From: Burkholderiales bacterium
GTDB taxonomy: Bacteria; Pseudomonadota; Gammaproteobacteria; Burkholderiales; Burkholderiaceae_D
DNA: 64,000 nt
NCBI GenBank assembly: GCA_026399895.1
Contig: JAPLQC010000022.1
Span: 7,132-71,131, forward strand
Direction: 5' to 3'
Under the pieces are notes generated by a model. The model had not been told where the DNA came from and searched no databases. It saw only the letters and a list, made by a program, of their open reading frames with translations. The position numbers and the translations under genes are program-made. Below are positions 54,308 to 56,455 of the stretch, piece by piece; within the stretch, counting starts at the first letter, position 1; each line of letters starts with the position of its first letter.

Positions 54308-56455
54308 ATGACCACACCAAAGCCGACGCTTAGCCGTCACTCTTCGCGCACAGAAATAACTGCGCAAAGTGAGGAAAGTAGTGCCGAAGCATCATCTGAA
54401 GACAGTCAGTCGGGCAGGGGTACTAATAAGGCCAAAAAGCCGCCCGCGCTCGAGCAGCGCCAACGGCCGCGCGCTGGTACCTGGGTGGCGGCAACGGCCA
54501 GCAGCGGCGCCCCCTCAACCAGTGAAAAAGCGGCCAAGCCTCATGAAAAAGCCAGCGAGCCAGTGCTATCGTCACGCGGACCCTTGCCACCTTTACCCAA
54601 ATCTCCCAGTGGCGACGCGCCCAGCAGCTCGACACCAAGTAATTCAACACAAAGCTCCTCAACACCCAGCACCTCAACACCCAGCACCTCAACACCCAGC
54701 ACCTCAACACCAAGCCCATCGCAATCGGCTACTTCAAAACCCGCGCCCTATGTGAAGAGCAAGGTGCCAGCGCAACGGGTGCCGCCAGCACTCGCGAGCG
54801 TCTTGACAGCCGGCTACCAAGGGACAAAGTCGGTACCTGATCCCAATAATCCCGCCAAAGTCATTCAAGTGCATGTGTTTAACATTCCACCCAAGCAGAT
54901 CGCGCGCTTGATCATTGGATTGGAAAGCAATTTCTATGACAACCAACCATCGGGCGATAACCTTGCCAAGCCTTTGAGAGACAGATTCGGCATCGTGGGG
55001 TTTGAGGTGAGTAGCGCGAAAACGCTGGATGAGATTAATGTGATCGAGCAGATCCTGCAGCCATTCATGCAGCGCATATTTGACAGTCCGGAGGCGGAGC
55101 AAGCAAGGGTCGGGGTGCGTGAGCGATTTAATGTGTTTGTAAGCGGCCCCTACAAAAATTTGTTGAACACAGAGGAAGGAAAAAATAGCAAAGAGGGTAC
55201 CTTGCAAAACCTCAGCTTCCGTAATCAATTCGACACAGTCGTTCAGCCACTTGAAAGCTATATTTGTGGCCCTGATCGCAGACTTGAATCATCACCGCTT
55301 CCTGCGGAATTCAAATCGTTTTTAAAAGAAGTTGTGAGAAGTTACTGCAGCTGGTCTGAAAAGCAAAACATCTCACCCCAGCAGCTCACAGGTATGATCA
55401 AAAGCGCTTTGGTCGGCTTGTTGTTTATCCGTGGCCTGCTGCCCAATTGGAACACGAAGTTCGAGGCCGATCTTCAGACCAAGCAGCAGGGGGAGCGTGA
55501 ATGGAGTCAATTCAAAGGAAAGCTTACCGCCCAGCTTGCGCATTACACCTCTTTTTTGTTTGACGACTTTGTGTACGACATTATTGCTGCGACCGACGGA
55601 AAGCCGGAAGCATTTGAGCAATATTTCAGGCCGACACAGAAGGCTACCGAACTACGACGCAAAGAGGCGATGGCCGCGAGCCATAAGCAGCAGGGCAGTA
55701 AGAGAGTGCTCACGCGTGGCTCAACAATTTCTGGCGGCGCGAACAGTAACACCGAGAAACGCACCACGATCGGAAGCTTTATTCAAGGCTTGGTGTCACC
55801 CAGAAAGAAAGAACCTTCGAGCTCAAACGCAATCCCAGTTTCTCCGCGTGTAGAGTCATCCAAAGGTTTGCTGCTAAAGAAAACCGATATTCGTAATACG
55901 AAAGCTAAGCGTGGGCAGGTGCGGGAACTAGATAAATATCTGAAGTCGATTAACCTACCGAACCGTGATCCCGGGTACATTAGGTACTTGAACGAGGCTA
56001 TCGCGAAACGTGCCAACTACGAGACTTTTGAGTCTGAACCCGCTGCATTTTGCTTACAGCAATTGAATCATTATCTTATTTCGTTGAAGCAGGAAGGCCA
56101 AGAATCTCCAGAAAATCTCAAGCAGACTCAGGACTTGCTGTCAGCACTGGTGAATCAAGAACGTAAACATGCCGAGCGGGATGCGCAGCAAGCCAAGCGG
56201 CAAGCGCCCGCAAGTCAATCGGTCGCGACTACAAAAAGCTCATCTAGCAAAAAACCATCGCTAGTTCCGGGCCTAGATTTTGAGAAGCTTAAAACTAGTC
56301 CATTCGCTGAGGATCCGGTCGAATCTGAAAATGCATCCGCATCGTCCAAGACCGAACCTAGCGAAAGTACCGAAGTTGAAACCGAGGGTGGTCAGGATGA
56401 ACAAGTTGCCAATAACAATGTCGGCAATGTTGAGAATGAAAAGAAAAACGACTGA
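54308..56455 (+). CDS. Orphan 715-aa protein with a disordered Ser/Thr/Pro N-terminus and an acidic C-terminus (candidate secreted effector)
   Basis: Single long ORF, AT-richer than its flanks, with GAAAGGA about 7 nt upstream of the ATG and a TTCG-tetraloop terminator downstream. I do not confidently recognise any family. Confidence 0.75.
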   Translation: MTTPKPTLSRHSSRTEITAQSEESSAEASSEDSQSGRGTNKAKKPPALEQRQRPRAGTWVAATASSGAPSTSEKAAKPHEKASEPVLSSRGPLPPLPKSPSGDAPSSSTPSNSTQSSSTPSTSTPSTSTPSTSTPSPSQSATSKPAPYVKSKVPAQRVPPALASVLTAGYQGTKSVPDPNNPAKVIQVHVFNIPPKQIARLIIGLESNFYDNQPSGDNLAKPLRDRFGIVGFEVSSAKTLDEINVIEQILQPFMQRIFDSPEAEQARVGVRERFNVFVSGPYKNLLNTEEGKNSKEGTLQNLSFRNQFDTVVQPLESYICGPDRRLESSPLPAEFKSFLKEVVRSYCSWSEKQNISPQQLTGMIKSALVGLLFIRGLLPNWNTKFEADLQTKQQGEREWSQFKGKLTAQLAHYTSFLFDDFVYDIIAATDGKPEAFEQYFRPTQKATELRRKEAMAASHKQQGSKRVLTRGSTISGGANSNTEKRTTIGSFIQGLVSPRKKEPSSSNAIPVSPRVESSKGLLLKKTDIRNTKAKRGQVRELDKYLKSINLPNRDPGYIRYLNEAIAKRANYETFESEPAAFCLQQLNHYLISLKQEGQESPENLKQTQDLLSALVNQERKHAERDAQQAKRQAPASQSVATTKSSSSKKPSLVPGLDFEKLKTSPFAEDPVESENASASSKTEPSESTEVETEGGQDEQVANNNVGNVENEKKND
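54650..54720 (+). repeat. 15-bp in-frame tandem repeat (about 4 copies) encoding STPST units
   Basis: CCTCAACACCCAGCA is repeated head to tail (three perfect copies and one diverged). It encodes ...SSTPSTSTPSTSTPSTSTPSPS... Confidence 0.95.

Follow-up and report, generated by a model that had tools for sequence, protein, structure and literature searches.

A fast-evolving protein family with its own promoter signature beside a tetR-efflux operon in freshwater bacteria: a candidate translocated effector

What kind of protein is encoded by a 715-residue gene that stands back to back with a tetR-efflux operon in a Burkholderiales bacterium? The gene lies in a window of 64,000 nucleotides (nt), the whole stretch analysed here (contig JAPLQC010000022.1 of assembly GCA_026399895.1, positions 7,132 to 71,131), and an earlier note, made from the letters alone, had presented its product, the target of this study, as an orphan with the layout of a translocated effector. 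We found that the target belongs to a syntenic but rapidly changing family, that it is preceded in every member by one highly specific promoter motif, and that its central domain is confidently modelled. Among the explanations for these features, we place first a translocated effector, most likely of a type III system, to which we give a little less than an even chance.

The open reading frame (ORF) is a real gene. Comparison with three orthologues by the Nei-Gojobori method gave ratios of nonsynonymous to synonymous substitution (dN/dS) of 0.13-0.18 for the globular domain and 0.17-0.35 for the disordered parts, with dS near saturation; because the ratio lies between 0.13 and 0.35 in all regions, purifying selection acts throughout, disordered regions included. 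The ORF has its own Shine-Dalgarno sequence and a strong TTCG-tetraloop terminator, both as noticed earlier. The terminator hairpin, ~70 nt past the stop codon, folds with a dG of -19.4 kcal/mol; its z-score is -5.6, and no shuffled sequence (0/200) folded equally well. The G+C content is indeed below that of the neighbours, but only modestly, and the 40-47% counted before on two lines of 60 nt does not hold for the whole gene: it is 51.1% overall, with 0.54 at third codon positions (GC3) and 47.8% in the 3′ third, against 54-59% and a GC3 of 0.57-0.69 in the flanking genes.

The label of orphan did not survive database searches. A search of 5.8 billion proteins returned 35 homologues at 36-100% identity (E <= 1e-72), HMMER, run exhaustively over 1.84 billion cluster representatives, gave 59 clusters at 50% identity, mostly 18-30% identical to the target, 8 genome loci carry the family, and a metagenome scan with the close-family alignment located it in 28 metagenome loci; a profile search in a word-indexed database recovered almost only the close family. 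None of these homologues has a Pfam domain, an informative name or an annotation, and none comes from a cultured organism. The genome matches are all metagenome-assembled genomes (MAGs) from lakes and groundwater, labelled Burkholderiaceae or Betaproteobacteria, and three bear an evidently wrong taxonomic label. The RlmL protein of the window matches many proteins of lake metagenomes at 91-97% identity, among them one labelled 'Oxalobacteraceae bacterium', and that of the nearest cultured genus, Noviherbaspirillum, at only ~76%. Given these identities, the carrier is an uncultured, apparently common freshwater lineage resembling the Oxalobacteraceae. The phylogenetic profile that the earlier note had proposed is narrow, with the family confined to freshwater and groundwater metagenomes of one uncultured lineage.

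At every locus examined, the family gene is divergent from a tetR operon that also encodes a membrane fusion protein (MFP) and a resistance-nodulation-division (RND) pump, even in relatives that are ~20-26% identical; downstream one usually finds uppP and then trmB. The location beside TetR and efflux genes, read correctly from the window, is therefore general to the family. Because this synteny is constant across distant relatives, the gene is old and vertically inherited and not a recent island. The target nevertheless evolves several-fold faster than all of its neighbours. In the closer loci, UppP is 93-97% and TetR 94-97% identical, whereas the target is 65-73% identical overall and 80-85% in its domain; in the more distant loci, UppP retains 83-86% and the target domain 25-37%, and across the loci compared TetR keeps 75-97%.

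On the target's side of the intergenic region, GGAA(A/C)C-N-GGTTAC is the only strongly conserved block. In all loci, 45-146 nt separate the motif from the start codon, and a weight matrix from 23 distinct instances gave the family consensus aGGAACC-N11-GGGGTTACGAA. When the window and 45 fetched loci, 512 kb in all, were scanned on both strands, there were 48 matches to GGAA[AC]-N15/16-GTTAC, against about four expected anywhere by chance (our own estimate, with equal base frequencies); 48/48 are on the coding strand and 48/48 are 5′ of either the target family or a second family, represented by a 533-residue protein. Moreover, the weight-matrix scan of the same 512 kb found no sites beyond these two families. 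The motif has the form of a promoter for an extracytoplasmic function (ECF) sigma factor. The plus strand of the target intergenic region holds no sigma-70-like site, and the regular expressions for the canonical hrp box and the PIP (plant-inducible promoter) box had no exact match upstream of the target. Past the motif, inspection by eye of the aligned upstream sequences from the window and from fetched loci L001, L004, L005, L015 and L016 showed a conserved leader element, ACGTTGTCAG.

The divergent operon has control elements of its own (Table 1). The tetR-MFP-RND promoter has its -10 element overlapped or adjoined by an inverted repeat, TTACTAAC-N6-GTCAGCAA, which is likely the TetR operator of that operon, not part of the target promoter. 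Control of the target by TetR was considered and set aside: the tetR operator and promoter lie 43-117 nt from the target motif, they are separately conserved, and no shared operator is evident. Several loci also vary in gene content. Tandem diverged paralogues lie between tetR and uppP in L011 (2969-5422 and 5659-7926) and in L044, the promoter motif being repeated before each of them; L012-L014 retain only the paralogue of the form 'MARPTG...PPLPPSP'; and in some distant relatives a MacAB-like operon for export (MFP/ABC/FtsX) stands between the family gene and uppP (L016, 13273-16541; L017, 8324-10812).

The second family comprises unannotated proteins of 533-618 residues that have a disordered N-terminus, end in ...ASGWNLP and are unrelated to the target. 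In some relatives its gene sits between uppP and trmB; it is absent from the window, where this gap is 132 nt. The members that share the promoter are 533-559 residues long, with GGAAC-N16-GTTAC placed 45 nt 5′ of the start. On a 214-kb lake scaffold (L015), a gene of 154 codons matches the CesT family of type III chaperones (25.4 bits against a curated Pfam cut-off of 22; E = 1.6e-5) and lies 68 nt upstream of the gene for a 618-residue protein, which is 31% identical to the 533-residue family over 316 residues (E = 1e-39). The chain that leads from the target through the shared promoter to the 533-residue family, its homologue and the chaperone is indirect but coherent. Because the promoter is common to the target and to a second family, one member of which pairs with a CesT chaperone, the shared motif suggests a small dedicated regulon. 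The CesT operon itself was rejected as a regulon member, its upstream near-match being below the weight-matrix threshold. We also discarded 'MSTP' as a common N-terminal signal of the three families, which was suggestive but did not recur consistently: orthologues of the 533-residue protein start with MGTP and the 618-residue homologue with MRAI.

Subsequently, we turned to the protein itself. A full-length AlphaFold2 model built with 25 homologues reproduced the proposed layout of a disordered N-terminus, a globular part, a basic linker, helices and an acidic tail. In this model residues 1-142 are disordered, residues 145-465 are globular at a predicted local distance difference test score (pLDDT) of ~90, disorder returns across residues 465-526, and the helices of residues 521-632 are modelled at pLDDT 54-82. 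A domain-only model (residues 145-465, 64 sequences) reached a pLDDT of 93.7 and a predicted template modelling score (pTM) of 0.91. The Foldseek search that the earlier note had suggested, run with this model against 350,542 PDB chains and BFVD, gave no match at E < 0.1; the domain thus has a confidently predicted fold unlike any solved structure in the PDB. Likewise, the target protein, 40 relatives and a 64-sequence profile had no significant match in Pfam, NCBIfam, PADLOC or PDB sequences, the lone profile match being NF033172 at 15 bits against a cut-off of 40.

Within the globular domain, R224, P252 and G321 are invariant across the family and N244, S329, W349, R375, W381 and F421 are near-invariant, while none of the residues kept family-wide is acidic, His, Cys or Lys. 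Since the sole invariant polar residue is an arginine, the domain probably serves binding or regulation, or acts in an arginine-dependent manner, rather than as a classical enzyme. Two specific identities were rejected. Weak choline-kinase matches recurred in a full-length Foldseek search that otherwise returned long-helix noise, and no catalytic Lys or Asp is conserved. A RasGAP identity, suggested by motif resemblance, had p120RasGAP (PDB 9bz4) as the top TM-score of the PDB search (TMq 0.32 over 212 columns; Foldseek E = 1.9, not significant), and no Pfam RasGAP match. The 'FIRG' and 'FRNQF' of the target superficially resemble the FLR and arginine-finger motifs; however, distant relatives do not keep R305, the candidate finger, and the invariant R224 sits in an alpha/beta subdomain that the all-helical RasGAP fold lacks.

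The disordered regions hold short peptides whose conservation marks them as functional. A Φ-x-R-x-x-S-x-x-x-Φ motif occurs within the first 20 residues in about half of the full-length members, some of them ~20% identical in the domain, and the consensus of the extreme N-terminus is MSTPPLSRxNSxxxL. Further on come RxRAGTW, an RxRxxT-Φ motif, and the proline stretch PLPPLP, the latter already noticed in the earlier reading. In the linker, no member of the close family departs from S497, P498 or R499, and SPR motifs recur in nearly all distant relatives, and in the tail SPFAED and the acidic character are kept well beyond the close family, the last 40 residues having an acidic fraction of 0.2-0.35 in most members. 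Among established consensus motifs, Φ-x-R-x-x-S-x-x-x-Φ is a site of the AMPK/PKD/CaMK type, RxRxxS/T-Φ of the Akt/AGC type and S/T-P-x-K/R of the CDK type, and PxxP is an SH3 ligand; the likenesses of the target motifs to these sites are resemblances at the level of patterns. The repeat that had been picked out in the N-terminal region is a 15-nt tandem repeat encoding STPST, and its copy number differs among close homologues (alignment columns ~140-170), which suggests slippage-driven variation in the length of this linker.

A second ORF of the window independently hints at dealings with eukaryotic cells through its eukaryote-like architecture. This F-box-like ORF lies in an island of low G+C (44% against ~56%), begins with MSTPP, and has a Ser/Thr/Pro-rich N-terminus and an acidic C-terminus. 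It matches the F-box family PF12937 at E = 0.0054 (16.9 bits, below the Pfam cut-off of 24.3), and its RNI-type leucine-rich repeats (LRRs) resemble those of NLRP1 (E = 0.003). The contig index has no record of this exact protein. With the RipG/GALA effectors of Ralstonia and the F-box effectors of Legionella, the F-box-like ORF, not the target, has in common an F-box-like motif followed by LRRs, low G+C and a Ser/Thr/Pro-rich N-terminus; it differs from them in that its F-box is below the Pfam cut-off and its LRRs are of the RNI/NLR type. The literature on Oxalobacteraceae and F-box effectors yielded nothing specific. As a member of the putative regulon the ORF was rejected: its upstream near-match, TGAACC-N15-GTTCC (starting at 40874, minus strand), is below the weight-matrix threshold.

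The closest set of likenesses that we drew is to the effectors of HrpL regulons (Hop/Hrop proteins of Pseudomonas syringae, Erwinia and Herbaspirillum). Export signals of P. syringae effectors follow rules of composition (Ser above 10% over the first 50 residues, Pro or an aliphatic residue at position 3 or 4, acidic residues absent from the first 12), which have low specificity. The N-terminus of the target, MTTPKPTLSRHS..., agrees with them in its Ser content, in Pro4 and in the lack of Asp and Glu from the first 12 residues, the latter two as observed before; its first 25 residues are 44% Ser+Thr, with Ser at 24%. The Ser/Thr/Pro-rich N-terminus, the modular build with disorder ahead of a globular domain, the fast divergence and the pairing of a co-regulated family with a CesT/Tir-family chaperone are all shared with HrpL effectors. 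The published HrpL consensus, the hrp box, is GGAACC-N15-CCACTCAAT (PMC3487950), and the promoter consensus of the target family has an identical GGAACC -35 element at a spacing of 15-16 nt, followed by a different -10 element. Furthermore, hrpL-type type III systems exist among the Oxalobacteraceae: Herbaspirillum has hrpL, a group-I-like type III system and chaperones of the Tir family (PMC3487950). The target also bears a likeness to effectors that mimic eukaryotic linear motifs (reviewed in PMC4951486), in its basophilic-kinase, proline-directed SPRK and PxxP patterns within disordered regions; it differs from them in matching at pattern level only, with no homology and no known host, kinase or partner. 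The effector-like reading, first drawn from layout alone, has thus gained circumstantial support from the promoter, the CesT link, the fast evolution, the motifs and the F-box-like ORF, while no secretion machinery was seen in the window or in any locus.

Several observations weigh against an effector. In the 64-kb window and the fetched flanks there is no type III, IV or VI secretion gene and no hrpL-like sigma factor gene, and no CesT-like ORF adjoins the target in any locus; an adjacent cognate class I chaperone is a feature of many effectors, though not of all. The CesT link concerns a different family and one distant relative, and GGAACT-N15-GTACACA, the sequence 5′ of the CesT gene, matches the motif only nearly. 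Where the hrp box has CCACNNA, the target has the -10 element GTTACGAA, which reads GTTAC(G/C)NA, and many ECF sigma factors share a GGAAC -35 element. In addition, the motif is a near-palindrome and could instead be the site of a repressor, an activator or a dimeric regulator. Unlike HrpL effectors, the target is a syntenic core gene and not part of an island, and vertical inheritance over such deep divergence is unlike that of typical effector islands; it also has its own conserved N-terminal peptide, and strong conservation there is atypical of type III signals. Neither in sequence nor in fold is the target homologous to any known effector, and short linear motif matches arise easily in disordered sequence. 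Finally, the carriers are abundant MAGs of lakes and groundwater that have no known host and look free-living.

The foremost alternative, a serious rival though the less likely reading, is that the target stays inside the cell as a disorder-rich scaffold or regulator in an ordinary ECF regulon, for example one for envelope or chemical stress, tied by position to the tetR-RND efflux operon, with its Ser/Thr motifs serving as sites for bacterial kinases or partners. The protein has no signal peptide, and the missing secretion genes, the purifying selection in all regions and the apparently free-living carriers would all suit such a role; the place beside tetR-MFP-RND, strictly kept in every locus, is what a vertically inherited cellular function would lead one to expect, and GGAAC-N16-GTT is a general form of ECF promoter. 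However, a cellular role of this kind sits poorly with a rate of divergence several-fold above that of all neighbours, and the TetR operator and promoter, at 54050-54099, stand apart from that of the target, so that there is no sign of joint control. Outside the target family, moreover, this promoter precedes only genes of an unannotated family whose N-termini are disordered and which, through one member, is tied to CesT. We also count against an intracellular role that cytoplasmic proteins of proteobacteria seldom have long Ser/Thr/Pro-rich regions or PxxP or SPxK motifs.

It is improbable, in our judgement, that the target reaches other cells as an effector of some system other than type III, such as a type VI system or a type IVB system of the Dot/Icm kind that would read an E-block signal in the glutamate-rich C-terminal tail. 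The tail is conserved (STEVETE...ENEK), its acidic fraction is maintained in most members, and the F-box-like ORF likewise ends in acidic residues; yet acidic tails are common in disordered proteins, the window and flanks hold no type IV or type VI gene, Dot/Icm genes included, and the only secretion-related gene found in the lineage encodes a CesT-family type III chaperone. Least probable of all is a surface or extracellular structural protein with O-glycosylated, mucin-like linkers, exported by an unrecognised signal: Ser/Thr/Pro repeats whose copy number varies are typical of linkers outside the cell, but the target repeat is short and embedded in a longer N-terminal region with conserved basic motifs, and the target has no Sec or Tat signal, transmembrane segment, autotransporter or RTX features or Pfam adhesin domain.

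Table 1 Features of the target locus, its protein and the associated genes. Positions are those of the window unless a fetched locus (L number) is named.
Feature	Position	Strand	Remarks
Inverted repeat TTACTAAC-N6-GTCAGCAA	54050..54071	.	In all intergenic regions compared
Sigma-70-like promoter TTGACG-18-TATATT of the tetR-RND operon	54070..54099	-	10/12 matches; hexamers conserved across loci
ECF-type promoter motif GGAAACC-N12-GGTTAC	54142..54167	+	Present 5′ of every family member
Leader element ACGTTGTCAG	54187..54196	+	ACATTGYCAG in relatives; ~20 nt past the promoter motif
Shine-Dalgarno GAAAGGA	54296..54302	+	5 nt before ATG; GAAAGG kept in relatives
Target coding sequence	54308..56455	+	715 residues and stop codon; ATG start
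N-terminal motif LSRHSSRTEI, residues 8-17	54329..54358	+	Form Φ-x-R-x-x-S-x-x-x-Φ
Motif RPRAGTW, residues 53-59	54464..54484	+	Form RxRxxT-Φ; kept in close and several distant relatives
Proline motif PLPPLP, residues 92-97	54581..54598	+	P94 and P97 nearly invariant or invariant in the close family
Tandem repeat (STPST)n	54620..54715	+	In-frame 15-nt unit, 6.4 copies
Globular domain, residues 145-465	54740..55702	+	Four-stranded alpha/beta subdomain, then helical bundle (predicted)
Basic disordered linker, residues 466-519	55703..55864	+	Conserved SPRKKE and VSPR
C-terminal helical domain, residues 520-632	55865..56203	+	Conserved YLK, PAAFCL; aligns in distant relatives
Disordered acidic tail, residues 633-715	56204..56452	+	SPFAED, STEVETE, ENEK; net charge -8
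Intrinsic terminator	56527..56565	+	GC-rich stem, TTCG loop, U-run
Family of 533-618 residues	L001 13468-15069; L006 3326-5002; L015 19700-22089; also L023, L028, L045		
F-box-like ORF	39344-40780 (39344-40816)	-	478-490 residues; between waaA and an outer-membrane efflux gene

The rest of the 64-kb window is housekeeping in character, with genes for acetyl-CoA carboxylase, PrmA, a Mur-ligase fusion, an RNB ribonuclease, AroE, a photolyase, pyrimidine and dTDP-rhamnose metabolism, WaaA, two RND systems, UppP, TrmB, tRNA-Gly, RlmL, DsbA and ProA. The Mur-ligase fusion is a 634-residue ORF (7666-9570) in which a complete, three-domain ligase of the Mpl/MurC kind is joined to a C-terminal UPF0227/alpha-beta-hydrolase domain. 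A PilJ-type chemoreceptor (748 residues) and a ChpA-like hybrid histidine kinase (1544 residues) at 19243-26130 represent a chemosensory system for type IV pilus twitching. The tRNA-Gly gene (anticodon CCC; 58335-58408, minus strand) adjoins trmB and is the only Rfam/ARAGORN match in the window.

The gene appears to be transcribed alone from its ECF-type promoter, giving a transcript with a leader of ~130 nt that ends at the strong terminator, and the same promoter would drive the second, unrelated family with disordered N-termini. If the target is an effector, its course could run as follows. The non-acidic, Ser/Thr/Pro-rich N-terminus would act as the export signal. After delivery, the Φ-x-R-x-x-S-x-x-x-Φ, RxRxxT-W, PLPPLP and S-P-R-K motifs may engage host kinases and adaptor proteins, and the 320-residue domain together with the C-terminal helical domain would carry the activity, probably one of binding or regulation. 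A bolder form of this idea, which we regard as doubtful, is that the uncultured lake lineage possesses a vertically inherited effector regulon under a promoter resembling the hrp box, of which the target family would be the oldest member, a protein of new fold that is injected into eukaryotes such as protist grazers or algae and there mimics motifs of the AMPK/PKD, Akt and CDK types and SH3-binding motifs.

Even as an intracellular protein, the target would offer a well-defined and confidently modelled domain of unknown function under an unusually specific ECF-type promoter and, through the conserved short motifs of its disordered regions, a tractable case for signalling by linear motifs in bacteria. 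As an effector, it would found a new family of effectors whose fold the PDB lacks, supply a simple promoter signature by which the regulon could be listed across MAGs, and point to secretion-based contact with eukaryotes in a widespread, never-cultured lake lineage. Should the injected regulon be real, effector-mediated dealings with eukaryotes would be a core trait of common freshwater bacterioplankton and not of pathogens only.

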